DNA of 64,000 nucleotides from Giardia intestinalis (GCA_000002435.2 CM018791.1), one strand, 5' to 3'; counted from the first letter of the stretch, positions 43,288-61,430 are shown. Made by a program: numbers and translations. The notes: generated from the sequence alone by a model not told the origin.

Positions 43288-43404
43288 AAGCACTTCGTTC
43301 GCCCCCGGGTAGTCCTAGCGATCAAAAAGCTGGTGTGGTGTTGGCCTCGAGTGCAGGTGCTAAGGGGCTATGCAATATACACCAGTGAAAATATTACGTG
43401 GTGG

Positions 43405-46335
43405 TGCTGCTGGGGCCTGCCTGCGGGCGCTGTCCGCAAATCTCGCGAGTAAATTCCCGCTCAATTTTTGGCGATGTCCGGAGACGAGGGTTGGTCGTGT
43501 ATCAATATAAAGACCACAGTGGTGGTAGGGAGGAGCTGTCTGCATTCCTCGGCTGTTCTGCGGGTGTGTGCTCGGTCTAGGTGTGCACATAGGTCCTTTT
43601 GGAGATCAAGCCGTCCTGCAGGCTCGCTGGTCTACTAGGGTGCCTCTTCTTGTTCTCCCTTCACGGTGAGTGAAGCTCAGGTCTTTGTTGTCATTCTCAA
43701 TACTGTCCATACAGATCAGCAGCAGCTAACGGGGCGTTCTCTCCTGGTTGGGATTCCACTCGACTGCGTGTCCAGTCTTGGGCCCCTTCTCGATCGTTGT
43801 CGTCGGGTCCCGGGGATGGGCTCATTCGGTTGTCAGAAGTAGGATGACAGGAGGCGGTCGCTCTGGGTGACCAGGCTTTCGGCCCGGCCCGTCTGATCAG
43901 CTTCGTCGGGTGCTCGTTCGCCTCTGCAGCCATGTGGGCGATGGCGAAGGCAGCCCGGACAGAGAGCTTCTCGACGTCCACGTAGAGCTCCTCGAGGTGC
44001 CTCTTGGACTTGGGGTGGAGGGATCCGTCTGTCTCGTCCCTGTACTTCTTGACCTTCTCGTTGTAGTAGGCATCCATCTGGCGGGGCTGGATGACGCCCA
44101 CATCTATCGCCTTGCACTTGTCGACGAGCCAGATGTCGGGCTTCTGGTTCTGGTCGCTGAGGTGGCTGTGGGTCTTGACCTCCAGCTCTGCGTTGAACTT
44201 CCCTGAGACGCGGAGGTACAGGCACGCGACGATCATGTCGTGCCTCGTGGCAGCCCGGGCAGGTGCCTCTTGTCTGCGCCATGATCGAGCCATCTCTCTC
44301 CTTCAGGGCCCTTTCCTCCTCGGTCAGCACGCCGCCGCTCTGTCCGGAAGCTGGTGTATGCGTGAGGAGGCGGTTGAAGTAGGTCCCTTCCCCTGCAGTG
44401 CCTGGCCTTCCACCGACAGCTCCACCGGGTCTCTGGCTCCCTTGTTGACGTCCGGGGAGGCCCATACCCTCCGCAGCTCGTCGTGGCAGAGCCCCGGCAT
44501 GAGCAGGCCCGGGCCGCCCTTCTCCTTCGGGTACGCCAGGAAGTCGACCAGGCGATCGCAGCTTCTGTTAGTTATTTTGCTGAAGCCTTGTGCGATGTCT
44601 GTCGAGCTCCTCGTAGTCCGCCTTGTCCGATGTTACTTCGACCAGGGGGGCGTAGTTCACCATCGGGACCACACAGAGTGACACCAGGATGAGCTTCTGG
44701 TGGGTGGTTATGGGGGCAGTCTCAGCACCTGCGATGGCCTTCGGCGCGGGACTGGCAGGGGTGGGGGACACCGGGTGGTTGAGGAAGGTCACCTCCTCGC
44801 CCGCCATGGTGGACTTGCATTTGTCGCTCCTGATCGTCAGGCCCATGGTCTGCTGTGTTATCGCGCCTGCCGGGTAGGCCTCGTCGTGGAGCGTCACGAT
44901 GTCGTCCGCTAGGCAAGGAAGGTGATGCCCCTCTCCCTGAGGCGTCTCAGAGGCGCTCGGTAGCCATGCAGAAGAGGAACATGCTGAGCGGGTCGCCCTG
45001 GGGGACGCCGCAGACCTCGCACTTCACGTCCCGGCTGTGCCTCAGGTCGAGGAAGTTCCTGATGTAGTCGACCAGGACCTTCGGGACGCCCGCCTCGTTC
45101 AGGGCTCTGACGACCTCCGCCCTTGGGAGCGAGTTGAAGGCCTTCTTTGTGTCGAGGGAGACGGCGTGCATCCCCGGCCTGCTGATGAGCTCGTGGGCCC
45201 TCCTCACGCCTACCGCGTATGCGTTCTGCATGAAGGCGATCTGTTCGCACGAGAGGTAGTTGGCATGCTTGATCAGCCGCTTCAGCAGGACGCGGTGGAA
45301 GATGTTTGTCACCGTCTTGCCTATCGCGATCGGACGGTATCCGTCGGACTCCTTCGGGATGAGGATCGCCCGGAACTCGAACATGGCCGTCACCTCGGGC
45401 ATCGCCTCGGGGTGGGTGGTCAGCTCGTTGTACGCCTGCGTGAGGTACTTCACGAAGCTATCGTTCTGCTTCATCGCTTTGAGCTGGACCGGCCCGAGAC
45501 CAGACAGGCCTTGTTGAGGGTTCCAAACAGGACCTTCCTCATTTCTTCTTCGGTTGCCACTCCAGCCCCGTCGAGCTCATCGATGGAGGGCAGTCAAGGC
45601 CAACGTGGCCTTTGGGAGGACGCACGGGTGTCTCATCAAGGGCGCGGAGGGCCTTGGCAACTGCTCCGAAGCTCAGCGCGTTGTTCACCCTATTTGGAGC
45701 GGTGTCTCCTTCTGGGTCTGCTATGCTGTGCTGCTTGCTCCGGGCCTCCTACCAGGGTGTTCAGGCCCTTGTTAACGAGGAGCGCGACCCCAGTCCCGGC
45801 CTGCTCGATGCTCGCGATCATGCGCGCACCCTGGTGGATGAGCATGGCAAGCTCTGTCTGGTTCGGTATATGGGATGGAATGATCAGTTTGTCGTCGCCT
45901 AGCATTCTGTGTCTGTCATCGTTTGCTTCTCTCAGGTGCTCGGTCAGTTGCTTGGCGCTCTCGCACGGTAGGCCACAGAGCCAGCGTGTGTGTCCTGCTG
46001 AGAGAGTAAATGTCTTCGGAGTGGTCTCCCAAGTAGAGACTCACGGCTTGCTCTCTGGGTGTCCCTGAGGTACGATTTTGCATTCGTAGTGCAGATCTGG
46101 TCCTCGCGGGCTCTCCTTCGCCTCAGGTCCAGCTGTGCTCACGCCCGTAGAACAGCCGTGGAACGCACAGACCCCAGATCCACACGTGGAGGGAACCCCT
46201 CTTTGCCCCCGCTGTGGTTATCGTTGCAACCCGCGGCCAACCCTCATCTCCGGACTGGCTGGGAATTGAGCAAGAGTTTACCCGTGAGACCTCTGGACCA
46301 TACCTGCAGACAGGCCTCAGCGGCACACCACTGGA
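43405..46335 (-). mobile_element. Degenerate copy of an RLE-clade (R2-like) non-LTR retrotransposon in minus orientation, truncated at both ends relative to the second copy. Compatible with a Giardia GilD/GilM/GilT-type element, but the family is not determinable here.
   Basis: Reverse-transcriptase motifs in fragmented frames (RPIAIGKTVTNIFHRVL; SLDTKKAFNSL; GVPQGDPLSMFLF; LADDIVTL). C-terminal CCHC and PD-(D/E)xK endonuclease remnants (CPGCH..., KPDIWLVDKCKAIDVGV). Translated ORFs identical to the copy at 54.7-57.7 kb. GC-rich. Confidence 0.75.
44947..45474 (-). pseudogene. Reverse-transcriptase fragment (motifs 1-5) of the minus-orientation retroelement copy. Frame is broken on both sides.
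   Basis: 175-aa ORF MKQNDSFVKYL...RPIAIG...SLDTKKAFNSL...GVPQGDPLSMFLFCMATERL. The YxDD-equivalent LADDIVTL continues in another frame (44568..44897). Confidence 0.7.
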
Positions 46336-47030
46336 AGCAACCGGTGGATGGAGTGAATGTGTCCATGAGCAGAAGGGCGGGCCGGGCGTCTCTTCCGCAC
46401 CAACCAGGGATCGACCTGGGGGTCCACGGGCACACGCTACAGTCCAGGAGGACACATGGTGAGCGCACCCCGACGGCAGGATCGATGGTCCACTCCACGA
46501 GGAGGCGAGAAGGAACCCGAGTAGACATTCCAAGGCCATGACACATGCGACCTTCATCATGTAGCACCGAGCGACTCTGGACTACATGCAGGGATCATTG
46601 CTGCCAGGGCCAGATCGTTGCAACTGACAATAGGGCCTTGGGGTAGCGGTGCTTACCAGGTGTCAGGCAGCAGCCGACCCCCACAGAAGTTGAACGAAGG
46701 AAAGGAGAAGCCCTTGGAAGGCACTGCGAAGAACATGCAGTGACCCCGAAGGGCGAGGAGGCATAGGGGTCTTCTCTCGCTAGAGTTAGATGGCACCTGA
46801 GTGAAAGACCCTCTTGGTGAAATGGCAACTCGCATGAAGGACTTACTCAAGCAGCAGCTAATAAACTAGCTTCGGTGACACAGGGTAAATTTCATAAATC
46901 AAGATTTGTTTTATAGTATTTTGGCACGGGCTGGGAATGTGAGGTACTCCTCTTGTAAAGTCTATCTTCCAGAGTTCTTTGCTCCTTTTGAAGAGACACG
47001 ATAGGTTTACTTGTGAGGTCACAAAGCAGT

Positions 47031-49232
47031 CTAAGGATCATTATGACCATCGACACCAAGTGTACTACTGCTGCTAAGGAGAGACAATATTTCGGAATAG
47101 CCCCTAGTCTCAAGCTCACTAAAAAAGAACTTGTTAGATTTGTCTACTAGGTGTCCCTCCTTTTCAAATAGCAGTTTTACTATTTCTAAGTGGCCAGTAA
47201 ATGCTGCATACATGATAGCAAGCATACCATAATTGTCCTCCATACCGTTTTCATACTTCATTAGCAGTTCTACTATTTCTAAGTGGCTATTAAGTGCTGC
47301 ATACATGAGAGCAGTCTTATTTTTACTATCTTTCATTCCAGCCTCACACCCCAGCAATAGTCTTACTACCTCCAGATAGCCATCAGAGGCCGCCCTCATA
47401 AGGGCTGTTACGCCATTGAGGTCCTTCATAGTGCTCTCACGGTTCATTAGCATTTTCACTATCTCTAAGTGCCCCCTAGATGCGGCCTCCATGAAAGCAG
47501 TTGTTCCAAAAACATCTTGTGCACAACTTTCATGGTCTATTAGTAGTCTTGCTACCTCTGTGTGGCCGCCTATTGCTGCTCGCATTAATGCCGTGACACC
47601 AAATTCATCGGTTGGCTCAAGAATATCCATAACAATTTTGTGCCCTGCATCCCTAGCAATCGTCAGGGCCGTATTACCTTCGTTGTCGACTAGGTCCCTC
47701 TCGTACGGGATCAAAATGGAGGCAGTTTCTGCGCTACCATTCTCTGCAGCGATCATTAGGGCAGTCCAGCTACTGTTATTCCTCTTTCCATGCTCATGAG
47801 GGACGAGAATTTCAACTACCTCAGGGTGGTTGCTGTGTGCGGCGTGCATGAGTGCAGTCCAGCCATTCTTGTCTCTGAAGCCATTCTCCTCCTCAACAAG
47901 CAGCTTGACAGGACCGATGTGCCCCTGCTGGGCTGCGTGCATGAGGGCCGTCATCTTCTGCTCATCGCGCTGACCAATATTGAATCCCTCGTTGACCAAG
48001 GTCCAAACGGCCTCCATGTCATTCGTGTGTGCAGCACGTATCAGCCTAGGGAGCAAGAGGAGATTGAACTGAGAGTTGGATGTAGCTAATCCAGTGCTAA
48101 GTTGTGCGATTCTATTTTCTAGTACTCTTATTATGGCTAGGTACTCTTTATCCCGATCTTCAAGCGCATCAATCCTGGTGAATTTAATTCGAGGCTCCTG
48201 TCCCAAACTGTCGATTTTACTTTGCCTACTCTCGAGGGCTGTCTCAAGAGCAGTGATCCTGTCCAATTTGGCCTCCGCATCCGCTTCCAGAAGTGCGATC
48301 CTGGTATTAATATTACTTAGCGCATCCTCCAAGGAGCCGCATTTGCCTTCTAGTACCACTTGCCGAGGTTCTAGCTCACTAACTGGGACGTCGAATGTGG
48401 TGAGCATTTCATACAGCTCCTTGGCTGTCAGTCTTTCCTCAGGATCTAGTACAAATATCCTCTTTAGAATGCCCTTTATGAAGTTACTAGTTACACCGCT
48501 CAGGTCTGGCCTCCACCCGTCGACGAAGACCTTTGCCGGCTCCTCACCCTCCAGGAAGTCCGGTCTCCTCAGAGTTACTAGTTCATAAATGATGACCCCG
48601 AGGCTCCACATGTCGGAAGCATGGCTGGTCTCATTACGGAGGAGAATCTCGGGGGCCATGTACGCCACTCCCATGATAGTGCTCTCACTCCACAGGGCGT
48701 CTATGCAGAGGCTAAGGCCAGCAAGGACGACGTGTTTGTTATCTGCGCTGATGAGGATATTGGTAGGCCTAAGATCGCAGTGAACAAGCTCCTCAACATC
48801 TACCTCACTAACGCTGTGGAGATAGGCGAGGGCGGCAGCGATCTGTTTCACAATGAAGAGGATCACGCTAACAGAGATAAAGTTTCTCTTTCGTTTGTAC
48901 TTGGTGAGAAGACGCTTGAGAGTCTTGTCGTGGCGATCCATGACAATGTAAATGAAGCCCTCGTTCTCAATAATTTGATGGTACCTGAGGATCCCTGGGT
49001 GGGAGAGCTCGGGGAAGGTAATCAGCTCTAGTCTGCTGGCATCCACGCTGCTCCTGTCCAGATGATCGAGGATGATCTCCTTCACGGCGAGACTCGGATA
49101 GCCCTTGAGGGAGTAGACTGCGCCCGTGATGCTTTCATTAAGCACGTCGTCTATCAGCTCGTGGAGCTCCCTGGGGGTGAACATAGGCACCCTGAGAGCC
49201 ACCGTTGCAGACTCAGATGAAGCAGCGTGCAT
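47031..49232 (-). CDS. NEK-family kinase-like protein with a central coiled-coil and C-terminal ankyrin repeats. Probably catalytically inactive.
   Basis: N-terminal kinase fold with VAIK-like LAVKEI, HCDLRPTNIL in place of HRDLKPxN, AGL in place of DFG, no GxGxxG, and APE present (YMAPEIL). Coiled-coil LEADAEAKLDRITALETALESRQSKIDSL. At least 8 ankyrin repeats (TALMHAAQQGH..., TALMIAAENGS...). ATG after aaaataataaaacgggATG. Confidence 0.75.
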   Translation of the reverse strand: MHAASSESATVALRVPMFTPRELHELIDDVLNESITGAVYSLKGYPSLAVKEIILDHLDRSSVDASRLELITFPELSHPGILRYHQIIENEGFIYIVMDRHDKTLKRLLTKYKRKRNFISVSVILFIVKQIAAALAYLHSVSEVDVEELVHCDLRPTNILISADNKHVVLAGLSLCIDALWSESTIMGVAYMAPEILLRNETSHASDMWSLGVIIYELVTLRRPDFLEGEEPAKVFVDGWRPDLSGVTSNFIKGILKRIFVLDPEERLTAKELYEMLTTFDVPVSELEPRQVVLEGKCGSLEDALSNINTRIALLEADAEAKLDRITALETALESRQSKIDSLGQEPRIKFTRIDALEDRDKEYLAIIRVLENRIAQLSTGLATSNSQFNLLLLPRLIRAAHTNDMEAVWTLVNEGFNIGQRDEQKMTALMHAAQQGHIGPVKLLVEEENGFRDKNGWTALMHAAHSNHPEVVEILVPHEHGKRNNSSWTALMIAAENGSAETASILIPYERDLVDNEGNTALTIARDAGHKIVMDILEPTDEFGVTALMRAAIGGHTEVARLLIDHESCAQDVFGTTAFMEAASRGHLEIVKMLMNRESTMKDLNGVTALMRAASDGYLEVVRLLLGCEAGMKDSKNKTALMYAALNSHLEIVELLMKYENGMEDNYGMLAIMYAAFTGHLEIVKLLFEKEGHLVDKSNKFFFSELETRGYSEILSLLSSSSTLGVDGHNDP

Positions 49233-49544
49233 CCCGTTTTATTATTTTGGTACTTTACTGTTTTAGAAACGGGTCGTTTTACATAGGTTAATATCTACAG
49301 GTCTATAGCGATCCCATGTCTGTGGAGAGCTTCTGCATAAGAGGCGAGAAGGCTGCCTGTGCAATCGTTTCACCTACCCCTGGTGTTCCAGTGCTGGCCG
49401 GGGGTGAGAAGGCCAGCCCCCTCTGACCTCTGTGGAAACGGATGGTTGTGTGACCCACTGACAGCCATCACTTCACCCTAGTGGCTGGCCATCCCTTTGC
49501 ACAGCTGGAGGGGACTACGATCTATCATCAAATTCGATCAACAG

Positions 49545-50222
49545 TTAAGCGAGTTCACTCACAGGTTCTTTAGGCGGTATCCTCAAGTAGGGATCCACTA
49601 GCCTAATACCATTGCTTTCAAGAAGAGATACTACCCTAGAGTGATTCCACCTATTAGCCATACGGATGGCAGACTCGCCACCGACATTCTTCTCCCTCTC
49701 CAGCAGTAACCTGACACAGTCTAGATGATTATAGCCTGCTGCAACCGTGAGAGCAGTACAGCCCTTACCCTTCTTCATGCCACCTTCAGTCCTTAAAAGT
49801 AGTCTCACGACCTCAGCGTGGCCAATAAATGCTGCCCACATAAGGGCTGTCCATTCATTACTGCTCCTCATGCAACTCTCATGCTTTCTCAGCAGCCTCA
49901 CCACCTCAGCGTGTCCAAGCACCGCGGCGACCATCAGGGCTGTCCCCTCATATATATTTATGCCTCCCACATTGACAAGCTTCGCCACCATTCTTGCCTG
50001 ATAAGGGATGTAGCGCTTCACCGCATCCACATCGTTCCTCTTAGCTGCCTCCATAAGTGTGGTGACGCCGTTTCCGTCCACGCTGCCTTCATCATCTAGT
50101 TCTGAAGACTCAGTAAGACTGTTCTTGCCCGCGCCCTCTTCGCTCGTGTCCTTCTCTGGCGCGAGGGGCGGGGCGCAGTCGTGCTTCTGAAGGAACTGAC
50201 CTAAATCATCCGCAGACGACAT
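49545..50222 (-). CDS. Small ankyrin-repeat protein (Protein 21.1-like). The start is placed at the second ATG (50222, MSSADDLGQ...), which is preceded by cgaaataaaaATG. The track ORF extends to 50294.
   Basis: Ankyrin repeats (TTLMEAAKRNDVDAVKRYI; TALMVAAVLGHAEVVRLL; TALMWAAFIGHAEVVRLLL; TALTVAAGYNHLDCVRLLL). Confidence 0.65.
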   Translation of the reverse strand: MSSADDLGQFLQKHDCAPPLAPEKDTSEEGAGKNSLTESSELDDEGSVDGNGVTTLMEAAKRNDVDAVKRYIPYQARMVAKLVNVGGINIYEGTALMVAAVLGHAEVVRLLRKHESCMRSSNEWTALMWAAFIGHAEVVRLLLRTEGGMKKGKGCTALTVAAGYNHLDCVRLLLEREKNVGGESAIRMANRWNHSRVVSLLESNGIRLVDPYLRIPPKEPVSELA

Positions 50223-50622
50223 TTTTATTTCGTAGTCACAAAGGAAACGCGTGTAACGGTAAACTTGCGATTCACGGTATTGTTTACAGATCATCCAAGA
50301 TAGTTCGCTTCACTGACTATTCACTGTGCCGTGCTCCTCTGTAGTAACAAGTTGACTGTTTAGGGGTAATGAACTTTATGGGGCCTCTCTTCGGCAACCA
50401 GGAGCTCCCGGCTCTCGTAAGTGGAAACAACGCCAGAGCTAGTGCTCGTGGCGATCCAAGCAAGCCTCGCCCATCCGAGCAGGCCTGCGTCGTCCTGTCC
50501 TACGAGGAGTACTTGATGGGTGAATTGCAATAGCTGATCATTACTAGAGGGTTCCGTGGACATGCATTGCTCGAGCGTGTCTCAGAGCACTGCCTACAAG
50601 TCTATATACGGCACCAGTATGC

Positions 50623-50636
50623 GTTTACTACCTAAG
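50623..50636 (-). terminator. Conserved VSP 3' element and poly(A) signal CTTAGGTAGTAAAC downstream of the VSP at 50649..52748.
   Basis: Reverse complement of plus-strand gtttactacctaag. Matches the AGTRAAY Giardia polyadenylation consensus and the extended motif seen after the other two VSP stops. Confidence 0.6.
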
Positions 50637-50648
50637 TCACATCTAAAT

Positions 50649-52748
50649 CTACGCCTTCCCGCGGCAGAGGAACCACCAGCAGAGGAAGCCGACGAGACCC
50701 CCAACGACGACGATGACTGCGACGGAGATGCCGGCTATGGCGCCCATGCTGAGGCCACTCTTGTTCGTGCTTCCGCCAGTATTGTCGCCGGTATTATCAT
50801 CCGTTTCGAAACATATGAACTTGCCGTTAACAGGTGTCGCGCACTGCCTGCATCCAGCCAGCCCCTCGGAGCACCTCTTGCACAGCCCATTACTGCTACT
50901 CTCCTTGTAATATCCAGGAGCACATACCTTGCATGTAGTAGCACCGGCTTCGCAGGTGTAGCAACTTTCGTGGCATTTCGTGCAGGCACTGCCAACCTTC
51001 ACATATCCGTCCATACACCTAGAACAGTCCTTAGTGGTGGTGCACTCAGCGCACCCAGTGTAGCAAGCCACAAGGCTCTCGCCTGTCAGGCTAAATCCTT
51101 CTTTCGGAGTCTTGCAGGTGCCGCCTGTACTCTGCGCACTCAAGCACACTGTCGACCCCGGAAGCTGGCTGGTGGAGTAGCAGCCGCCGTTCATCTTGAA
51201 GAAGCCGTCTGCGCAGACATTGCACACGCCACCGGTAATGCTTCCATCTTTGCACTTATCTGTGCGACTGACTTTAACAGCACAGACACCGTTCTGGGGA
51301 TACTCGTTGTTTTGACTACAGACAGAGCAGTATTTTGTCCCCTCAACAGTCAGACCGCACTCCCTGCACTTACCTGTGCCTGTGCCCGCCGCGCACTCGG
51401 CCCCACATGTGCCAGTGTTTCCTGTGGATCCGTAGGTGAGCGCGCTTCCAGACTTACAGCTTGTGCAATCATTGGCAGTATTTCCGCTACATGTCTTACA
51501 GCTGGAATCGCAAGGGGAGCACGCTTCGCCGTAGAAGCCGTCCTTACAGAGACCGCACCCGCCATTTTCACTGCACGCGAGACAGTTGGCGACCTCGCAC
51601 TTCTTGCAGACCCTCTTGTTGCCCTCTGTGCTACTGTAGTAGCCTAGAATATATTCGCAGTGATCTATGCACTGGCTTGTTGGCGCCAGATACTTGTTGG
51701 ACAGACATTCGGTGCAGATCTCTTTGTTTGTTTGTGCACCACTGCATGCCTTACAATCCTGAGTATTGCATGGATTTGAAGGGGAATCATTTGGCACGCA
51801 TTGTGTTTCTTCTTCGTTAAGCTTAAATCCATCATTGCACGTGCAAGTATTCTCGGTCTTGGCTTCTGAGTTATCAGGGCAGCTACTAATGCACGACTTC
51901 TTTCCGAGTCCAAATACCATATTTGCCTTACACGCTGTGCAGGTAACGGAGGTGTCACTTTTGGTGCATGTTTTGCAGTTCTCAAACGTTCCTGCCGTGC
52001 ACGGCTTGCAACTCTTAGGCTCGGTATCATCTGGGTAGAGGGTAGAATCGGTGGAGCACTGATTTCCTTCTACACATATCCCCGTTAGACTACCGCTTTC
52101 CTTCTTTAAATACATCTTACCGGTAGCCTTGCACTTGCTGCACTTCTTTGTGGTTGTCGCCTCTGTACATGTAGCGCAGTTCTCGTCGCCGCAAGCTGTG
52201 CAGGTCGTAGTACCTGCGCCGAAATAGCCTTCATCACACGCGGTGCATGTAGCAGGGCCAGTATTGCTTGGAGGAGTACATGTTTTACATTGATCTACAC
52301 CTTGGTATTGATCTGCCCCCGTCGTGTCATTACAGGAGATGCACGATTGCTTATTAGCGGCTGCCACTGGACTCTTAAAGAATCCTTCCACACAATCCTT
52401 ACAAACCCCTATTACCTTATCGCTTGCCGCTCCCCCTACTGGATCGGCACAGATAAGCCCGCCCAATTCGCCAGCAAATTCATAACATCCGCCCTTGTAC
52501 ATGAAGTATCCATCGCCGCAAGAGCCACACTTTCCTTGAGCAGGGGAAGCGCATTTAGCAGCTGCTTGGTCAGTCCCTGCTGGTACACATTCTCCATCAA
52601 TAAGGTGGTCTGTTTCGGTTTTACACTGTGTGCAAACTTCCGTTTTGCCAATCATATCACACTCACCATCTTTACACTTACTTGCAGTTGGCCCACTGCA
52701 CGATGCTGCAAGAGCACTTATCAAAAGGCAGGGAGCTAGTAGCAACAT
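50649..52748 (-). CDS. Variant-specific surface protein (VSP), complete, ~699 aa from the ATG at 52748 (signal peptide MLLLAPCLLISALAASC). The track ORF extends artefactually to 52835.
   Basis: About 12% Cys with many CxxC and GGCY motifs, a C-terminal transmembrane segment, and the invariant tail GGLVGFLCWWFLCRGKA. Followed by TGACTTAGGTAGTAAAC 9 nt after the TAG stop. Confidence 0.9.
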   Translation of the reverse strand: MLLLAPCLLISALAASCSGPTASKCKDGECDMIGKTEVCTQCKTETDHLIDGECVPAGTDQAAAKCASPAQGKCGSCGDGYFMYKGGCYEFAGELGGLICADPVGGAASDKVIGVCKDCVEGFFKSPVAAANKQSCISCNDTTGADQYQGVDQCKTCTPPSNTGPATCTACDEGYFGAGTTTCTACGDENCATCTEATTTKKCSKCKATGKMYLKKESGSLTGICVEGNQCSTDSTLYPDDTEPKSCKPCTAGTFENCKTCTKSDTSVTCTACKANMVFGLGKKSCISSCPDNSEAKTENTCTCNDGFKLNEEETQCVPNDSPSNPCNTQDCKACSGAQTNKEICTECLSNKYLAPTSQCIDHCEYILGYYSSTEGNKRVCKKCEVANCLACSENGGCGLCKDGFYGEACSPCDSSCKTCSGNTANDCTSCKSGSALTYGSTGNTGTCGAECAAGTGTGKCRECGLTVEGTKYCSVCSQNNEYPQNGVCAVKVSRTDKCKDGSITGGVCNVCADGFFKMNGGCYSTSQLPGSTVCLSAQSTGGTCKTPKEGFSLTGESLVACYTGCAECTTTKDCSRCMDGYVKVGSACTKCHESCYTCEAGATTCKVCAPGYYKESSSNGLCKRCSEGLAGCRQCATPVNGKFICFETDDNTGDNTGGSTNKSGLSMGAIAGISVAVIVVVGGLVGFLCWWFLCRGKA

Positions 52749-55533
52749 TGTGGCTCTGCTCAGATTGTTAGGTACATGCGAATGGGGAACCATTCGTAAC
52801 CTGACCTCTAGCCATCCAATGCTAGAGCTTACCAATCCAGTAGCATAGCAATTACTTTAGGAATGCTGATCTATTTATAGAGTACATCACACAAAATAAC
52901 TATATGACGTTTACTTAGGTAGCCGATGCATCAGTTATCGTATCATTATAGATTTATAGGTTGCACCATAAAAGTTATGCGCAAACCTCCACATAGATGC
53001 CTAAGGCCACAAGTCGAAGACGAAAAGCAGAAGCTAAAAAGCAATTCCCCGTGACTCTTGACCCCCACTTCTGCACCGTCCCCATTCGATGCAGGACGCC
53101 TCATCATCCGGTCCTTCCAAGTCTCTATGCATGATCCGTGGCCTTGTGTTCCGCACTGTGCCTTGCATCCTGGTAGTCACCTCCACCGGGTCCTTGCCAG
53201 CGGGGCCGACGGTCTCACAGCGATCGCGTATGACAGAGCAGTCACCATCTGATGTGCGAGCCCTGTGATAGGCCGTGATGTTGGAAGGCGACATCGGTTA
53301 AAGAGGAGGCATGGCCACACATTACGAGCCACGATGACATGGCACATTGCATAGCATCGTGATATATGCGTGCATAACCGGTACACCAATAGGCATAGAA
53401 ACAGCACACCAGTGCCACCAGGTCATGATGACCACTCTACCCACCAGTTATTTTTAAGACTGTGCTACTGGAGCCTACCTACAGGCGTGGTCCAGAGACT
53501 TCAGAAGTAAGTCTCACCCAAGTCATGGTCAGTGTGGAGACAAGGGTTGATCGTTGATGGTATATTAAGGGAATTTCCCTCCATTTGTATATTAGAGTCT
53601 CTTGTATTCCTCGGTCGCTTCATGCGATGTGCGTGTCCAGGGGTGCTCGTGTGTCTGTCCAGGGTTCAGACCTTTGCAAGGACACACGTTGTCCATTAGT
53701 ATGCCTCGCTTTTTAATCTGCCGTCTGGTGAACGAGCCTGGGTTGTCACTTCTTTTTCAATAGAAGTCTCCTCTGTCGCGACGGCTGCTATCGAGGTCTG
53801 GCTTTACTGGCTGGGGTCGTCTCTCGGTGACCGTCCAGCCGTGGTCCCGGAGGCCGGCGTTCCCTCCTGTTCGTAGTCCCCCAGGTCAGTGGGTCCAGTC
53901 GACAGTTAGAAGCAGGCCGGCAGGAGGAGTTGCCGGGTGGACGCCACAAGGTAGTGAAGGCCAGACAGAGCGCTCCCGGCGTCGCTGGGCCCCTTGAACT
54001 TAATTTACTCTCCACTTCACCGGGGTGGGGTTGTCCCCTGCTACCTGAGCGACCTCCCATGCGAGCTACTACCGCCCTGGACAGGTGGATCTCCCGCTTA
54101 CTCCCAAACAGAGTCCAGAACCCAAAATCCAAACCTAGAATCCGGTGCCGTAATTCCGGCGGAAAAAGACGCCCTAACGTCCAGCCTTCATCAAACAACA
54201 GACCCGCGGCTGCTCCCATGAAAGCGCCACCGAGGAAACCTCACAGAACCCTGAAGCGAAAAGCCAAGAAGGCACCCAGCAGCGTGAACGAAAGGGCGTG
54301 GAGACGAAAGCAGGGAAGCTCCGCACCTCCCTCCACCGAACCTCCCTGTCATGGAGAGCGGTGCATGGTGGCAGGCCCTCAATGGTCCCAACGGGGTCAA
54401 TCACTGACTACACGAACTGGCTCAAGGATGCTGGAGTTCACTCAAGGTGCTGCGCCTTCGGATCTCTCCTACGCGATCTGCAGCACGAGGAGCCGCCACA
54501 CCTTCTTCATATCACCGGAGGGCCTCGAGCGGCACGTCTGGGGAACTCTCTCCCGTCCGGGCACCTCCTGCAGCCTTGTGACAAGCAGACAGTGCCAGCC
54601 CACGCACCAGGCCCCGGCGCTCGAGCGCAGTGTCCTACGCGGGCCCTCGCCGTTGCCTGCCGTGATGCCCCGGACCAGTGGGTGCCGCTGAGGCCTGTCT
54701 GCAGGTATGGTCCAGAGGTCTCACGGGTAAACTCTTGCTCAATTCCCAGCCAGTCCGGAGATGAGGGTTGGCCGCGGGTTGCAACGATAACCACAGCGGG
54801 GGCAAAGAGGGGTTCCCTCCACGTGTGGATCTGGGGTCTGTGCGTTCCACGGCTGTTCTACGGGCGTGAGCACAGCTGGACCTGAGGCGAAGGAGAGCCC
54901 GCGAGGACCAGATCTGCACTACGAATGCAAAATCGTACCTCAGGGACACCCAGAGAGCAAGCCGTGAGTCTCTACTTGGGAGACCACTCCGAAGACATTT
55001 ACTCTCTCAGCAGGACACACACGCTGGCTCTGTGGCCTACCGTGCGAGAGCGCCAAGCAACTGACCGAGCACCTGAGAGAAGCAAACGATGACAGACACA
55101 GAATGCTAGGCGACGACAAACTGATCATTCCATCCCATATACCGAACCAGACAGAGCTTGCCATGCTCATCCACCAGGGTGCGCGCATGATCGCGAGCAT
55201 CGAGCAGGCCGGGACTGGGGTCGCGCTCCTCGTTAACAAGGGCCTGAACACCCTGGTAGGAGGCCCGGAGCAAGCAGCACAGCATAGCAGACCCAGAAGG
55301 AGACACCGCTCCAAATAGGGTGAACAACGCGCTGAGCTTCGGAGCAGTTGCCAAGGCCCTCCGCGCCCTTGATGAGACACCCGTGCGTCCTCCCAAAGGC
55401 CACGTTGGCCTTGACTGCCCTCCATCGATGAGCTCGACGGGGCTGGAGTGGCAACCGAAGAAGAAATGAGGAAGGTCCTGTTTGGAACCCTCAACAAGGC
55501 CTGTCTGGTCTCGGGCCGGTCCAGCTCAAAGCG

Positions 55534-56061
55534 ATGAAGCAGAACGATAGCTTCGTGAAGTACCTCACGCAGGCGTACAACGAGCTGACCACCCACCCCG
55601 AGGCGATGCCCGAGGTGACGGCCATGTTCGAGTTCCGGGCGATCCTCATCCCGAAGGAGTCCGACGGATACCGTCCGATCGCGATAGGCAAGACGGTGAC
55701 AAACATCTTCCACCGCGTCCTGCTGAAGCGGCTGATCAAGCATGCCAACTACCTCTCGTGCGAACAGATCGCCTTCATGCAGAACGCATACGCGGTAGGC
55801 GTGAGGAGGGCCCACGAGCTCATCAGCAGGCCGGGGATGCACGCCGTCTCCCTCGACACAAAGAAGGCCTTCAACTCGCTCCCAAGGGCGGAGGTCGTCA
55901 GAGCCCTGAACGAGGCGGGCGTCCCGAAGGTCCTGGTCGACTACATCAGGAACTTCCTCGACCTGAGGCACAGCCGGGACGTGAAGTGCGAGGTCTGCGG
56001 CGTCCCCCAGGGCGACCCGCTCAGCATGTTCCTCTTCTGCATGGCTACCGAGCGCCTCTGA
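55534..56061 (+). pseudogene. Reverse-transcriptase fragment of the plus-orientation retroelement copy.
   Basis: Identical 175-aa ORF to 44947..45474. Upstream motif-0-like sequence (GLGPVQLKAMKQ) is in a different frame from the preceding EEMRKVLFGTLNKACL, showing a frameshift. Confidence 0.7.
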
Positions 56062-56542
56062 GACGCCTCAGGGAGAGGGGCATCACCTTCCTTGCCTAGC
56101 GGACGACATCGTGACGCTCCACGACGAGGCCTACCCGGCAGGCGCGATAACACAGCAGACCATGGGCCTGACGATCAGGAGCGACAAATGCAAGTCCACC
56201 ATGGCGGGCGAGGAGGTGACCTTCCTCAACCACCCGGTGTCCCCCACCCCTGCCAGTCCCGCGCCGAAGGCCATCGCAGGTGCTGAGACTGCCCCCATAA
56301 CCACCCACCAGAAGCTCATCCTGGTGTCACTCTGTGTGGTCCCGATGGTGAACTACGCCCCCCTGGTCGAAGTAACATCGGACAAGGCGGACTACGAGGA
56401 GCTCGACAGACATCGCACAAGGCTTCAGCAAAATAACTAACAGAAGCTGCGATCGCCTGGTCGACTTCCTGGCGTACCCGAAGGAGAAGGGCGGCCCGGG
56501 CCTGCTCATGCCGGGGCTCTGCCACGACGAGCTGCGGAGGGT

Positions 56543-57367
56543 ATGGGCCTCCCCGGACGTCAACAAGGGAGCCAGAGACCCGGTGGAGCTGTCGGTGGAA
56601 GGCCAGGCACTGCAGGGGAAGGGACCTACTTCAACCGCCTCCTCACGCATACACCAGCTTCCGGACAGAGCGGCGGCGTGCTGACCGAGGAGGAAAGGGC
56701 CCTGAAGGAGAGAGATGGCTCGATCATGGCGCAGACAAGAGGCACCTGCCCGGGCTGCCACACGGCAGACCCTCGACCACGACATGAACTGCCCGAAAAC
56801 GGCGTGGACCAGGACCACGAGGCACAACATGATCGTCGCGTGCCTGTACCTCCGCGTCTCAGGGAAGTTCAACCGGAGCTGGAAGTCAAGACCCACAGCC
56901 ACCTCAGCGACCAGAACCAGAAGCCCGACATCTGGCTCGTCGACAAGTGCAAGGCGATAGATGTGGGCGTCATCCAGCCCCGCCAGATGGATGCCTACTA
57001 CAACGAGAAGGTCAAGAAGTACAGGGACGAGACAGACGGATCCCTCCACCCCAAGTCCAAGAGGCACCTCGAGGAGCTCTACGTGGACGTCGAGAAGCTC
57101 TCTGTCCGGGCTGCCTTCGCCATCGCCCACATGGCTGCAGAGGCGAACGAGCACCCGACGAAGCTGATCAGACGGGCCGGGCCGAAAGCCTGGTCACCCA
57201 GAGCGACCGCCTCCTGTCATCCTACTTCTGACAACCGAATGAGCCCATCCCCGGGACCCGACGACAACGATCGAGAAGGGGCCCAAGACTGGACACGCAG
57301 TCGAGTGGAATCCCAACCAGGAGAGAACGCCCCGTTAGCTGCTGCTGATCTGTATGGACAGTATTGA
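56543..57367 (+). pseudogene. Zinc-finger (CCHC) and restriction-like endonuclease region of the retroelement, frameshifted.
   Basis: CPGCH...(frame switch)...LDHDMNCPKTAWTRTTRHNMIVACLYLRVSGKFN...(frame switch)...KPDIWLVDKCKAIDVGVIQP. Compare R2Bm C..C...H...C / ARHNCVVNRI / KPDLVALRQNHIDVIDVQV. Confidence 0.65.
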
Positions 57368-59188
57368 GAATGACAACAAAGACCTGAGCTTCACTCACCG
57401 TGAAGGGAGAACAAGAAGAGGCACCCTAGTAGACCAGCGAGCCTGCAGGACGGCTTGATCTCCAAAAGGACCTATGTGCACACCTAGACCGAGCACACAC
57501 CCGCAGAACAGCCGAGGAATGCAGACAGCTCCTCCCTACCACCACTGTGGTCTTTATATTGATACACGACCAACCCTCGTCTCCGGACATCGCCAAAAAT
57601 TGAGCGGGAATTTACTCGCGAGATTTGCGGACAGCGCCCGCAGGCGAGGGCCCCGGCAGCTCGTTGCAGGCGGTGACAGAAGGGTCTCTCTGGCCAGTTG
57701 GGCAAGCATCATCCTATGCTTGCCACGGCCGCTGGGAATGCCGGTGTCACGTGTGTAGCTCGTAGGGTGAGCTCTTTTCGGAGCGCCCAATCTCCTTTTT
57801 ATCCGTGAAGGCGAGACCTGCTCACAACAGACCAATGACGACAGATAGATGGCTCCATATTGTTCACTCAGGCTGTCTACCCCAAGCAGTAGGGCCGTTC
57901 TCCTTCGTGAGGCAGAGGAGGCCATGTACCCACAAAGATACCCTTAAGTGAAGTGGCTTGGATGTGATATGTGTTTTCGGAGACTCTAGTGTACACAGTT
58001 GCTCATCCTCCGACACTGAGCCGGTCCGCAAGCCGCTGGCCACGCTGGAGTGCCCCGAAGCAGCCCAGGAGAGTGCGTGTGCTGATAGCTTGTCCGCCAG
58101 ACCCTCCTAGCAGCAGAGCGCCGTCGTGGCAGGAGAGCCTGCCCCTTGCATCGGCCGATCGGTTGCTGAGACCCCTGGTGCTCTGTCTGGAGCGGAGACT
58201 GTCCATGAGGGCCCTGTACGCTGCTCCCCTGCACCGACTGGCACAGCAGGGGGACCGGATGCCGAGGGACACCTCCAGCGTCTCGGGTCTCTACAGGACA
58301 GGACACACGGCAGGGACATCTGCATGCGGGCCAGAAGTCCTGCTCGGCCCCGTCCCTCGGCTGACGCCTTGGCCCCTCGGGAGCCCTGTCAGCACCACCG
58401 GAGGCAAGGACTCTCCAGGAGCGCTGCACCGGGCCCGCATGGAGTGGATGGCCCCACAGCCACTGCACGGGCCTCTCGGGCAGGGGGTCTCTTGCCGTGG
58501 CGGGGCTTCAGGCATGCCATCGGGACTGTCCGACGGTCACCGGTTGGGCCCTGTGTGACAGCAACAGACGAGAAGACTGTCCCACAACGAAATATCCCTC
58601 GCTGGAGGACTGTCAGCAGGGCAGGGGAAGCTGTGGCCCACTGGGGGAGTGAACGATCTCAGTGGGTCCAGGCGCACTGCACTGCGGGCCCCGTCGGGCC
58701 GGTCTCTGACGGGCGCCGCGATCACTCTGCCCGGTCTGGCAGATCACGAGGGGTCTGAGGCCGGCCTATTGGGAGGAGGACCAGGGCCCTCGCTGATGGT
58801 CGAGCAGAGTCACCACAGGGGGGCACGAGCTCGAGTGAATGAGGGCCCTCTTAGCAGCGCGCATGTCAACCGAGCGAGGAGAATGACATGGCAGTCACCA
58901 AGGAGCCATGACTTCTGAGCCTTCTGGGCTCTGCGCCGGGCCGGACATCAGCACAGCCCGCCTGCCGGTAGCACTGCCGCGGGGGTCTCCGTCGTGTGAG
59001 TGCCTGGGGTGAGCCGCTTGGGCACGGAGACGGGCTGTGCGGCGCCCAAGAGTGGAAGACCACCGCGCTCTGGTGCTGTGGGCCGAGTCGAGACAGGGGC
59101 CTCCAAGGCAGGGGTGGAACAGCGCTCCCCCCGTGTGCCGTGCTGGGTGGCCACAGACGGGGCAGGGGCCACCGCAGAGGACCCTCTA

Positions 59189-61351
59189 ATGTTCCAACTG
59201 ATACCCCTGTTCGTAGCGAGCGCGCTCATGGCGGCCTGCCAGCAAGACGGGAACCACCTGACCACCTGCGCACACGAAAAGTGCGAGACGGTCGGTAGCA
59301 CAGAGATCTGCACCCAGTGCAAGGCCGGAGGCGTCCCGGTCGACGGTTTCTGCCGGCCCTTCGGCTCCCCCCAGGCCGCGGCAGCCGGGTGCACCAAAGC
59401 AGACGGGGCTGCCCTCGACAAGACGGCAACCACCTGCGAGAAGTGCGGCGACGGGTACTTCCTCTTCATGGGCGGGTGCTACAAGACAACCGACGGGCCC
59501 GGCAGCGAGATATGCACAGCAGCCAGTAATGGAGTATGCACTACTTGTAAGGCAGATAACGGCCTGTTCAAGAACCCAGTTACACCTCAGAAGCCTGGTA
59601 GCGAGTGCATCTTGTGCTCCGATACTATAGATAGAAACGGGGTCATGGGAGTCGCTGGATGCTCAGAATGCTCCCACACGGGCACTAGCGGACCGGCCAC
59701 GTGTACAGAGTGTCAAGCAGGGTTCGTTACGAAGGACAGTGCATGTGTGAAGTGCGGAGACGGCTGCTCTGCTTGCTCAGCTGATACTCCGACTCAGTGT
59801 ACCGCCTGCGTTGAGGGGAAGTTCCTGAAGGATGGTAACACTTGTGTAGAGGCTACTGAATGTGGTGCTGATAAGTACGCAGACAAGAAGACCTGGACCT
59901 GCAAGGCATGTGATCCCGACATAGCTGGGTGCACCGCATGTGAATATAATGATGCCACGGGGAAGCCAAGGTGCACCAACTGCGGGACCAATAAGACCCC
60001 CAGGACGACCCTTGATGGGACCTCGACCTGTGTGACAAAAGACTACGCTGGATGTAAAGGCGCTGACGGGGCCCTATTTATGAAGGAGGACAAAACATGT
60101 GTTTTATGCAGTACCGTTTCAGCTGGAGCCGATCCAAATGACCAGGGCATTGCCGGGTGTAAGAAGTGTACCAAGGACTCGGCGACACCGCCAACCTGCT
60201 CGGAGTGCCTCGACGGATATTACAATAGCGCAACTGGTGGTAGTGGTACGGCTACATGTGAAGCTTGTGGTGATAATTGTGCCACCTGTGCTAAGGATAC
60301 AAAAGACCAATGCATGACCTGTAAGCCCGGGTTCTTCATGAAAGGTAGTGGTCCTGGCACATGCGTCCCCTGTGATGACCAAACAGATGGAGTGCCTGGC
60401 TGTGCAACGTGCACCTTCTCTAGCTCGTTGACCTGCAACTCCTGTAAGCCCAACTACAAGCAGAGTGGTACCGGTCCTTTTACATGCACCAAGACTTGTG
60501 AAGACCCCACTGCCTGCGGGGGCACTTCTGGTGCCTGCGATGCCATGATAATTGATGATCAGGGCACCACAAAGCACTACTGTTCCTACTGTGGAGAGAC
60601 CAATAAGATACCAATTGATGGGAAGTGTGTTGATAGTGGTAGTATAAATGGTAATACTTGTGCTAAAGGTGTATGTACACAGTGTGCTCAAGGATACTTC
60701 TTATACATGGGAGGCTGTTATAAGGTAGCAAGTCCACCCGGTAACCTCATGTGCACTGAAGCAACAACAGCTGGTGTCTGTGATACACCCAATGCCAATA
60801 ATAAGTACTTCGTAGTCCCAGAAGCAAAGCCTACTCAACAGTCTGTGTTGGCTTGTGGTAACCCCCTGGGCACACTAGTAGGCACTGATAGTACCGCTAA
60901 GGCATATGTGGGGGTGGATGGCTGCTCCCAGTGTACAGCCCCAACAGCTCCATCTGAGGGTGGCATGACTGCCGCCACGTGCACAGCGTGTACCAACAAC
61001 AACAAGCCCAACCTGGCTGGGAGCGGGTGCTTCCCATGTACCGTTAGTGGATGCTCGCACTGCAACAGGGATGACATGTGCGAGGCATGCAGTAGTGGTA
61101 AGAAGGTGAGCCCTGGAAGGAAGTCATGCGTGGATAGCTGCCCCAGCAACTCCACTGATGATAACTCTGTCTGTGTGTGCAACGATGGATATAGCCCTGA
61201 CAGCAGTGGGACCTCCTGTGTGTCCTCTGGCGCCAACAGGAGCGGCCTCAGCACAGGGGCCATCGCGGGGATCGCCGTCGCCGTGGTCGTCGTTGTGGGG
61301 GGCCTCGTGGGCTTCCTCTGCTGGTGGTTCATATGTAGAGGGAAGGCGTGA
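59189..61351 (+). CDS. Variant-specific surface protein (VSP), complete, 720 aa from the ATG at 59189 (signal peptide MFQLIPLFVASALMAAC). The track ORF starts at a GTG at 59000.
   Basis: CxxC-rich with GGCY motifs, a transmembrane segment and the tail GGLVGFLCWWFICRGKA. The stop TGA is part of TGACTTAGGTAGTGAAT. Confidence 0.9.
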   Translation: MFQLIPLFVASALMAACQQDGNHLTTCAHEKCETVGSTEICTQCKAGGVPVDGFCRPFGSPQAAAAGCTKADGAALDKTATTCEKCGDGYFLFMGGCYKTTDGPGSEICTAASNGVCTTCKADNGLFKNPVTPQKPGSECILCSDTIDRNGVMGVAGCSECSHTGTSGPATCTECQAGFVTKDSACVKCGDGCSACSADTPTQCTACVEGKFLKDGNTCVEATECGADKYADKKTWTCKACDPDIAGCTACEYNDATGKPRCTNCGTNKTPRTTLDGTSTCVTKDYAGCKGADGALFMKEDKTCVLCSTVSAGADPNDQGIAGCKKCTKDSATPPTCSECLDGYYNSATGGSGTATCEACGDNCATCAKDTKDQCMTCKPGFFMKGSGPGTCVPCDDQTDGVPGCATCTFSSSLTCNSCKPNYKQSGTGPFTCTKTCEDPTACGGTSGACDAMIIDDQGTTKHYCSYCGETNKIPIDGKCVDSGSINGNTCAKGVCTQCAQGYFLYMGGCYKVASPPGNLMCTEATTAGVCDTPNANNKYFVVPEAKPTQQSVLACGNPLGTLVGTDSTAKAYVGVDGCSQCTAPTAPSEGGMTAATCTACTNNNKPNLAGSGCFPCTVSGCSHCNRDDMCEACSSGKKVSPGRKSCVDSCPSNSTDDNSVCVCNDGYSPDSSGTSCVSSGANRSGLSTGAIAGIAVAVVVVVGGLVGFLCWWFICRGKA

Positions 61352-61365
61352 CTTAGGTAGTGAAT
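61352..61365 (+). terminator. VSP 3' conserved element and poly(A) signal CTTAGGTAGTGAAT.
   Basis: Immediately follows the TGA of the VSP. AGTGAAT fits the AGTRAAY consensus. Confidence 0.6.
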
Positions 61366-61374
61366 GCTGTACAG

Positions 61375-61430
61375 TGATAGTGATAGTGATAGTGCTATGT
61401 GGTGTGTGGGGTGATAGTGGTGGTGTGGGA
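61375..61430 (+). repeat. GTGATAG-type short repeat tract, (GTGATA)3 then degenerate GTGRTRG units, forming the junction between the complete VSP and the first truncated VSP copy.
   Basis: cagtgatagtgatagtgatagtgctatgtggtgtgtggggtgatagtggtggtgtggg seen directly. Confidence 0.8.

Follow-up and report, generated by a model that had tools for sequence, protein, structure and literature searches.

Two inverted, dead GilD/Genie 2-type retrotransposon copies 8.3 kb apart on Giardia intestinalis chromosome 3, probably homogenized by gene conversion

GilD, an RLE-type non-LTR retrotransposon family of Giardia, was reportedly described by Arkhipova and Morrison in 2001, and we take it to be the same family as Genie 2 of Burke, Malik, Rich and Eickbush (2002), in which terminal inverted repeats (TIRs) of up to ~170 bp are said to occur; the 878-aa RT/endonuclease AAM12686.1 is presumably the database entry for it. 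Pairs of inverted repeats that evolve in concert or invert the DNA between them are known from transposon-flanked inversions in Drosophila, yeast Ty elements and palindrome arms. GilD copies adjoin VSPs in gene-poor regions and are disrupted by microhomology-mediated deletions (PMC2861651), and in gene-poor VSP regions of isolate WB an RT remnant can lie between two diverging VSPs, in modules written as "VSP <- psiRT -> VSP" (Xu et al. 2020, Sci Data, Table 2; PMC7000408).

The stretch analyzed here (the window) comprises 64,000 nucleotides of chromosome 3 in the WB C6 reference genome, and within it two copies of such an element face each other across three genes:

38187-43280, plus strand: CDC7 kinase (KAE8303321.1), last gene in the cross-assemblage conserved order before the variable region
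43396-46360, minus strand: left GilD/Genie-2-type pseudo-retrotransposon, TIR to TIR (homology with the right copy, 43406-46334)
47031-49232, minus strand: NEK kinase with ankyrin repeats, in the bracketed block (Pfam Pkinase and Ank)
49545-50222, minus strand: ankyrin repeat protein 1 (KAE8303323.1), in the block (Pfam, exact protein match)
50649-52748, minus strand: VSP699 (699 aa, KAE8303324.1), in the block, 5' end toward the right copy (Pfam VSP, E=1e-133; exact protein match)
54675-57660, plus strand: right GilD/Genie-2-type pseudo-retrotransposon, both ends truncated relative to the TIR consensus (blastn, end alignment)
59189-63308, plus strand: downstream VSP array, VSP720 and then a VSP-like ORF that lacks a proper start
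59189-61351, plus strand: VSP720 (720 aa, KAE8303325.1, GL50803_00114674)

The pair sits at the border, on WB chromosome 3, between a conserved gene block and a variable region rich in VSP, NEK and ankyrin genes. CDC7 and its upstream neighbors keep their order in DH (sub-assemblage AII), P15, GS-B and BAH15c1, and the sole close relative (99%) of the NEK-ankyrin kinase was found in ENA contigs, all its other matches being at most 62% identical. An earlier, sequence-only reading of this DNA had placed an 8.3 kb block of three minus-strand genes between the two copies, with plus-strand genes on either flank, and the gene calls bear this out.

That reading had further described the copies as near-identical inverted segments of ~2.9 kb, a description upheld by repeat search, blastn and exact-match extension alike. 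When aligned, the segments prove to be inverted homologues of ~2.95 kb each, bounded by 43406-46334 on the left (minus) and 54675-57660 on the right (plus). Repeat search returned two inverted matches at 100% identity, one of 2086 nt (44241-46326 / 54682-56767) and one of 770 nt (43419-44188 / 56876-57645), while blastn of 54682-57660 against 46326-43406 gave 97.8% with one indel counted. By exact-match extension, the longest identical tract measures 2080 nt (left 44247-46326, right 54682-56761) and the second 761 nt (left 43419-44179, right 56885-57645). ORFs of 343, 175 and 109 aa translate identically in both arms, as had been claimed, and so does one of 113 aa; the 343-aa ORF runs antisense to the RT, matched no family in Pfam and is probably spurious. 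The homology ends at the element ends, flanking DNA not being included.

Both arms contain the remains of one and the same enzyme, whose recognizable parts are the following:

44947-45474, minus strand: RT fragment of the left copy, identical ORF
55534-56061, plus strand: RT fragment of the right copy (Pfam RVT_1, E=4.2e-15; same as XP_001705711.1)
56747-57025, plus strand: RLE region of the right copy (frame reading), broken by frameshifts

XP_001705711.1, an exact match to the arm RT ORF, is annotated as "Reverse transcriptase/endonuclease, putative", and the 2007 annotation gave the name "reverse transcriptase/endonuclease" to the arm fragments. Among solved structures (PDB), the best matches of the RT fragment are R2 proteins (E=6e-12), followed by a group II intron RT and LINE-1 ORF2; a second stretch aligns weakly to the R2 endonuclease region with the RLE motifs in register, these being, in the right copy, a CCHC knuckle (CPGCH..H...C) and then RHN, KPD(x12)D and K..KY. 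The RLE region is intact in two copies from isolate DH. The 175-aa RT ORF of the arms falls into one 90% cluster with AAM12686.1, and tblastn with that protein covers its residues 9-878 in each arm, at 54-83% identity per segment, spread over six frame segments in the left copy and five in the right (frames 1, 2, 3, 1, 2). At least four frameshifts, plus stops, are common to both arms, and neither can encode the enzyme. Besides the reconstructed AAM12686.1, only fragments of up to 292 aa and no intact family member were found among 5.8 billion proteins. Compared with four unlinked copies in DH, the right copy is 84-88% identical. The arms are thus two ancient, dead copies of the known GilD/Genie 2 family, and the RVT_1 match, the RLE motifs and the shared frameshifts confirm their initial description as decayed RLE-type non-LTR retrotransposons.

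As an element, the pair is no different from GilD/Genie 2: it shares the order of RT and C-terminal CCHC plus PD..D..K endonuclease, a length of ~3 kb, the occurrence as degenerate copies only, a gene-poor location next to VSP genes (the right copy has VSPs to either side), an internal deletion flanked by microhomology, and TIRs, which are ~100-190 nt in the family. Particular to this locus are the facing arrangement of two copies, 8.3 kb from one another, and their identity outside a 127-nt patch; the family is known already, and such an inverted pair is an ordinary repeat phenomenon. The domain order is also that of R2, NeSL and CRE, site-specific non-LTR elements bearing an RLE, of which R2 supplies the best solved-structure matches; the resemblance is a remote one, the arms show no evident target specificity, and TIRs such as theirs are unusual for that class. 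With the "VSP <- psiRT -> VSP" modules the locus shares the RT remnant between diverging VSPs, VSP699 (minus) and VSP720 (plus) pointing apart at 6.4 kb from start to start. The paired VSPs of those modules are duplicates, whereas VSP699 and VSP720 are only 32% identical, and here it is the RT remnant that forms the repeated unit, with genes between the repeats (PMC7000408).

The ends of the two copies were then compared with the TIR consensus:

43396-43500, no strand assigned: 3' TIR of the left copy, CDC7 side, with a diagnostic 2-nt deletion (GGC--AGG)
46235-46360, no strand assigned: 5' TIR of the left copy, complete to the consensus end ...GAAGCAACCGGTGGATGGAGTGAATG
54675-54775, no strand assigned: 5' TIR of the right copy, truncated at CCACTGG, 26 nt short of the consensus end
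57567-57660, no strand assigned: 3' TIR of the right copy, truncated at ...GGCAGC, 2-nt deletion absent

End alignment shows that the left element extends past the arm homology by ~10 nt on the CDC7 side and by 26 nt on the NEK side, and that all four termini are unlike in truncation point and small indels. The 3' ends of the two arms are unlike each other. Scanning of three DH copies gave TIRs of 186 nt at 100%, 170 nt at 98% and 125 nt at 90%, compared with which those of the window copies (~57-94 nt at ~77%) are more degraded. A DH contig downstream of CDC7 carries the same junction with the same 2-nt deletion as the 3' TIR of the left copy, an unrelated open reading frame following this TIR in place of the element body. 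Judged by this shared junction sequence, the CDC7-side junction is older than the AI/AII split, and it is at this end only that the left copy is demonstrably old. The NEK-side junction of the left copy recurs in two ENA contigs whose strain matches the window at 98.2% identity. No target-site duplication and no significant flank similarity emerged for the window copies in any pairing or orientation (best z=2.1), nor were target-site duplications seen around the DH copies.

Within the arms, differences are confined to a single place:

56758-56884, plus strand: patch holding the sole interior arm differences, apparently unconverted (left counterpart 44180-44251)

Here the left copy is without 57 nt present in the right (56758-56814), and three substitutions and one 1-nt indel accompany this deletion, so that all five interior differences lie inside one 127-nt span and the remaining 2080 + 761 nt hold none; by chance, five events would all land in a single 127-nt stretch of the 2964 nt with a probability of ~2e-5. 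CCAC microhomology borders the 57-nt deletion, which is shared with an unlinked DH copy; the right copy shows several private changes in the patch relative to all other copies. Independent decay of both copies should have produced a patch-like density of differences over the entire arm; for comparison, adjacent intergenic DNA differs by ~3% between WB and DH. Considering that (i) the copies are old and dead, (ii) their interiors are identical, and (iii) their edges and one heterology are not, the arms are probably two old inverted copies, 8.3 kb apart, homogenized by gene conversion, a process to which the distribution of differences points. Intrachromosomal homologous repair would have copied one arm into the other and left unconverted the 127-nt patch around the 57-nt heterology, plus the last few nucleotides at each end. 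This pattern, homogenized arm interiors with diverged edges and one diverged heterology, is the one met in the inverted repeats of Drosophila, Ty elements and palindromes, where inversion of the spacer is likewise possible in principle; unlike in those systems, only the conversion half is evidenced for the Giardia pair, at which neither an alternative orientation nor exchanged target-site duplications nor polymorphism was observed.

Conversion between inverted repeats can end in a crossover, through which the 8.3 kb block could also invert, and a crossover between the two copies may have set its present orientation, with further flipping among genome copies conceivable. This is a plausible but doubtful extension of gene conversion, mechanistically possible though not evidenced. 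In its favor, the arms are inverted, ~2.9 kb long and have, by the account above, already recombined; nanopore work led to a prediction of 162 inversions within the WB isolate and found VSPs over-represented among structural variants (PMC7048089); and in P15 the VSP most similar to the genes of the downstream array lies on the minus strand after CDC7, so that orientation varies between assemblages. The sequence-only reading went further and took the configuration as the signature of an inversion, in part because a flip would restore a single-strand gene layout. This goes too far: gene strand changes about a dozen times over the window's first 43 kb, which makes three consecutive minus-strand genes unremarkable and strand colinearity uninformative, and no polarity marker is available, as neither target-site duplications nor flank homologies were detected and the local junction sequences would be identical in either orientation. 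Nor would a flip set the internal VSP head-to-tail with the VSP array, as had been proposed, because by the coordinates it would bring NEK beside the right arm and move VSP699 to the CDC7 side, away from the array. Further observations weigh against an inversion. In GS-B (assemblage B), CDC7 is immediately followed by a VSP on the minus strand that, of all the window's genes, most resembles VSP699 (42% identity over full length), which weakly fits the present orientation being old; the accession order of 2007 suggests that CDC7 flank, left arm and NEK side were linked then as in the 2020 assembly; and the layout of minus-strand VSP, RT remnant and plus-strand VSP matches the divergent pattern known four times elsewhere in WB (PMC7000408). 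All the assemblies compared (DH, P15, GS-B, BAH15c1, the two ENA contigs and short-read contigs from two independent WB read sets) break at the arms, and the genes of the block do not figure among the published structural variants covered. A working flip-flop, in which the block would invert measurably among the four genome copies or the two nuclei, appears distinctly improbable. If true, this would give the RT remnants and the VSP array different neighboring genes, and read-through across the inverted copies might produce long double-stranded RNA as input to the RNAi pathway proposed for VSP control.

A recent inverted segmental duplication, in which 2.9 kb were copied in reverse 8.3 kb away and have gathered few mutations since, would readily explain why two copies of a dead element are almost perfectly identical, and it would suit a genome that is 6.9% duplicated and in which 19 VSP pairs are inverted duplicates (PMC7000408). 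We nevertheless consider it unlikely: the homology is confined to the element and takes in no flanking DNA; the left copy extends further at either end but lacks 57 nt kept by the right, so that neither is a simple copy of the other; five differences within 127 nt are unlike the scattered mutations that follow a duplication; and the two ENA contigs, whose strain differs from WB by 1.8%, already branch precisely at the inner edge of the arm. Formally, a very recent DNA-level copy of one element laid over the site of the other would count as one long conversion tract, indistinguishable from repeated short tracts.

The repeat is not an assembly artefact. Misassemblies of the reference at retrotransposon repeats are known, as in the GilM region of Chr5 (PMC11169602), and one copy placed twice, or a block mis-oriented, in the PacBio assembly could mimic such a pair; this is most improbable here, given that arms of 2.9 kb are well under PacBio read length and that the 2007 Sanger annotation already has arm-specific ORFs, each beside its own outer flank. 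XP_001705713, with the left-arm deletion, adjoins CDC7 (XP_001705714) in that annotation, and XP_001703946, the right-arm allele, adjoins the VSP XP_001703945. Short-read contigs argue in the same direction by ending k-1 nt into the identical tracts at both the CDC7-side and NEK-side junctions: the independent WB contigs (Logan SRA-run assemblies) end ~30 nt into the identical tract starting at 43419, and the two ENA contigs reach 140 and 54 nt into the arm before ending, the behavior expected of k-mer assemblies at a repeat.

Two recent, independent retrotranspositions of an active master in opposite orientations would account for homology that terminates at the element termini, and are close to refuted by the frameshifts and stops that both copies share, by the lack of an intact family member in the protein search, by 3' ends that differ and carry no poly(A) tail or target-site duplication, and by a CDC7-side junction that predates the AI/AII split.

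Beyond the right copy, the downstream VSP array contains direct repeats with a period of ~1.95 kb.

Two near-identical inverted segments had been recognized by the sequence-only reading as decayed non-LTR retrotransposons of the restriction-like endonuclease (RLE) type, carrying ORFs whose translations are the same in both, and all of this was borne out. A repeat search returned inverted arms of 2086 nt and 770 nt, both at 100%; exact extension of these matches delimited two tracts free of differences, one of 2080 nt and one of 761 nt, and blastn aligned 54682-57660 with 46326-43406 at 97.8%, including one indel. Neither blastn nor tblastx detected a third copy or remnant of the element in the window. 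Ten ORFs in the left half match exactly WB C6 proteins of chromosome 3 in the 2020 PacBio reference (KAE8303304 to KAE8303319), and the genes around the arms were assigned as follows:

38187-43280, plus strand: CDC7 kinase KAE8303321 (exact match; Pfam kinase)
43406-46334, minus strand: left arm
47031-49232, minus strand: NEK-ankyrin kinase, within the block (Pfam kinase, ankyrin)
49545-50222, minus strand: ankyrin repeat protein 1 KAE8303323 (exact match; Pfam ankyrin)
50649-52748, minus strand: variant surface protein VSP699, KAE8303324 (exact match; Pfam VSP)
54675-57660, plus strand: right arm
59189-61351, plus strand: VSP720, KAE8303325 / GL50803_00114674 (exact match; Pfam VSP)

The right arm encodes on its plus strand an RVT_1 domain (Pfam, E=4e-15), followed by a frameshift, an xADD motif, a CCHC knuckle and then RHN, KPD..D and K..KY motifs, the last three belonging to the restriction-like endonuclease that R2-type elements carry. 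When the frame-repaired translation was compared with solved structures, R2 proteins ranked best (E=6e-12), with a second, weak stretch over the endonuclease motifs. The 175-aa reverse transcriptase (RT) ORF matches XP_001705711.1 exactly, which the 2007 annotation names 'Reverse transcriptase/endonuclease, putative', and falls into one 90% cluster with AAM12686.1, the published 878-aa reconstructed RT/endonuclease. Residues 9-878 of the latter are covered by tblastn in each arm, split into five or six frame segments; thus, each arm is a full-length but dead element. The 343-aa ORF of the sequence-only reading (45037-46068, plus, and 54940-55971, minus) runs antisense to the RT region, shows no family match, and has most likely arisen by chance in DNA that is GC-rich.

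Four unlinked copies in DH, a sub-assemblage AII isolate, are 84-88% identical to the arm, one of them adjoining an SLFN_AlbA_2 gene. Terminal inverted repeats (TIRs) of 125-186 nt were found in the three of these copies that were scanned, the longest being 186 nt at 100%, and those of the window copies are degraded, at about 77% over 57-94 nt. The TIR pairs include:

DH copy L014: 8806-8991 / 11768-11953
DH copy L013: 8878-9047 / 11839-12008
Window, right copy: 54675-54775 / 57567-57660

In L014 the palindromic symmetry runs on into the flanks, and two alternative terminal sequences recur among element copies. Long TIRs are unusual for non-LTR retrotransposons; inverted terminal repeats were reportedly noted by Burke et al. 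in 2002 in Genie 2, which we take to be the same element as GilD. GilD adjoins VSPs and carries microhomology-flanked deletions (PMC2861651). The window copies resemble it in being dead, about 3 kb long and composed of RT plus RLE, as well as in their position beside VSPs, a microhomology-flanked deletion and inverted terminal repeats. Both the element family and these very fragments are already known and annotated.

All differences in the interior of the arms are confined to one 127-nt patch, containing three substitutions, one 1-nt indel and a 57-nt stretch deleted from the left copy, with several changes private to the right copy; the probability of five events falling within one such span is about 2e-5. 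The deletion, of 57-59 nt with CCAC microhomology on its flanks (left arm 44247-44251 versus right arm 56758-56814), also occurs in the unlinked DH copy L012 (about 5649); either microhomology-mediated deletion recurred here, or the deletion marks a shared sublineage or ectopic conversion. When all element ends were aligned, the window's four termini proved different. At its inner end the left copy continues for 26 nt beyond the arm homology, reaching the consensus end (...GAAGCAACCGGTGGATGGAGTGAATG, about 46360), and at its outer end it is about 10 nt longer than the right copy and bears a 2-nt deletion (GGC--AGG); both ends of the right copy are truncated, and that deletion is absent from it. 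Since the left copy extends further on both sides and the right one keeps the 57 nt, neither was simply copied from the other.

The CDC7-side junction, including its 2-nt deletion, is also present downstream of CDC7 in DH, so at least that end is older than the split between AI (WB) and AII. The NEK-side junction was found in two ENA contigs (L001 and L002) from a strain close to WB, 98.2% identical to the window, which break off 140 and 54 nt inside the arm, as is typical of k-mer assemblies at a repeat. Gene conversion between two old copies in inverted orientation best accounts for the near-identity of the arms: the interiors of two dead elements would have been overwritten, with the 57-nt heterology and the extreme ends escaping conversion. 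Recombination between the arms clearly occurs. A recent arbitrary segmental duplication and a fresh retrotransposition both fit worse than gene conversion, and so does an assembly artefact, against which speaks the 2007 annotation, where ORFs specific to one arm or the other already stand next to each outer flank. This locus neatly exemplifies gene conversion keeping dead Giardia retroelements identical.

The arm configuration had also been read as the signature of a retroelement-mediated inversion of the 8.3 kb block. Inversion is plausible, because recombination between the arms happens and many intra-isolate inversions have been predicted in WB from nanopore data (PMC7048089), yet the configuration is no signature of it, and we regard a derived present orientation as rather unlikely. 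The argument that flipping would bring all genes onto one strand is weak, since the coding strand switches about a dozen times among the genes of the first 43 kb. Nor would flipping set the internal VSP head-to-tail with the array: by their coordinates, NEK would come to adjoin the right arm and VSP699 would move to the CDC7 side. The current arrangement, VSP (minus) / RT remnant / VSP (plus), repeats a divergent pattern described four times elsewhere in WB (Xu et al., PMC7000408), although here VSP699 and VSP720 are only 32% identical.

No evidence for inversion was found. A crossover within the arms keeps all four local junction sequences, so that orientation is readable only from a molecule spanning a whole arm, and every other assembly reached breaks at the arms. 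A search for target-site duplications and a comparison of the 200-nt flanks, with shuffles, gave nothing significant that could serve as an exchange marker. The accession order of 2007 (XP_001705706 ankyrin, 705711 RT, 705713 left-arm-specific ORF, 705714 CDC7) suggests, from the numbering, that the flanks joined across the left arm in the Sanger assembly were those joined in the 2020 assembly. If the block flips, it would offer a concrete case of retroelement-driven structural heterogeneity beside antigen genes, in a parasite that is tetraploid and for which no sexual cycle is established.

CDC7 and the genes next to it on the upstream side are conserved in DH, P15 (assemblage E), GS-B (assemblage B) and BAH15c1, and the conserved order stops right after CDC7. 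None of the contigs of this neighbourhood (DH, P15, BAH15c1, GS-B, GS and WB short-read Logan assemblies) crosses an arm; each ends there or continues into unrelated DNA. In DH (L003 15266-17011, AHGT01000021.1), a ~100-nt GilD terminal repeat lies by CDC7, followed by an ORF 'X' of 582 aa or more, still open where the contig stops. ORF 'X' matches no Pfam family, does not occur in the WB window and has one relative among 5.8 billion proteins, an ENA fragment with 97% identity; it therefore does not clarify the ancestral state, and may be either a gene specific to AII or another cargo carried between GilD-type ends. In P15, an unrelated 490-aa ORF occupies the position after CDC7. Since CDC7 is followed by other ORFs in DH and P15, the retroelement end is a rearrangement border between sub-assemblages. 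Dead retroelements mark the borders where the gene order shared by assemblages ends, which is of use for Giardia genome assembly and comparison, even if specialists would find little surprise in it.

The first gene after CDC7 in GS-B is a minus-strand VSP (L006 15450-17504) that, among the window's genes, matches VSP699 best (42%), and P15 has a minus-strand VSP fragment after CDC7 (L004 21188-21850) most similar to the array VSPs of the plus strand (51-52%), so the outgroup signal is mixed. The minus-strand position of this first VSP is shared by both assemblages and WB. Some 50 genes upstream, beyond the window, chromosome 3 holds two paralogs of VSP699 more than 90% identical to it, which adjoin another RT/endonuclease fragment (locus of KAE8303272, KAE8303273 and XP_001705781.1), and DH contig 21 (143 kb) joins VSP fragments of this cluster to CDC7. 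Modules of VSP plus RT remnant may hence bound the conserved block at both its ends.

Neither the 733-aa and 717-aa NEK products nor the 249-aa ankyrin product has an exact database match, the WB gene models being different, and since both NEK products are off record the reference gene model must differ. The only close match of the NEK-ankyrin kinase (47031-49232, minus) is in ENA contigs (99%); across P15, GS and other named genomes, no homolog exceeds 62% identity. No ORF spanning an arm junction is on record in the protein collection, Pfam scans of spacer, flank and GC-rich ORFs returned zero families, and an Rfam scan of the whole window zero matches. Between the right element and VSP720 (57900-59500), 1.5 kb at 66-68% GC carries several long ORFs on both strands, with no Pfam family and no similarity to the retroelement. 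The second unit of the VSP array lacks a proper start codon and a signal peptide; the array itself (59189-64000, plus) is made of tandem VSPs and pseudo-VSPs in direct repeats with a period of ~1.95 kb (families D1-D4, 80-94% identity).
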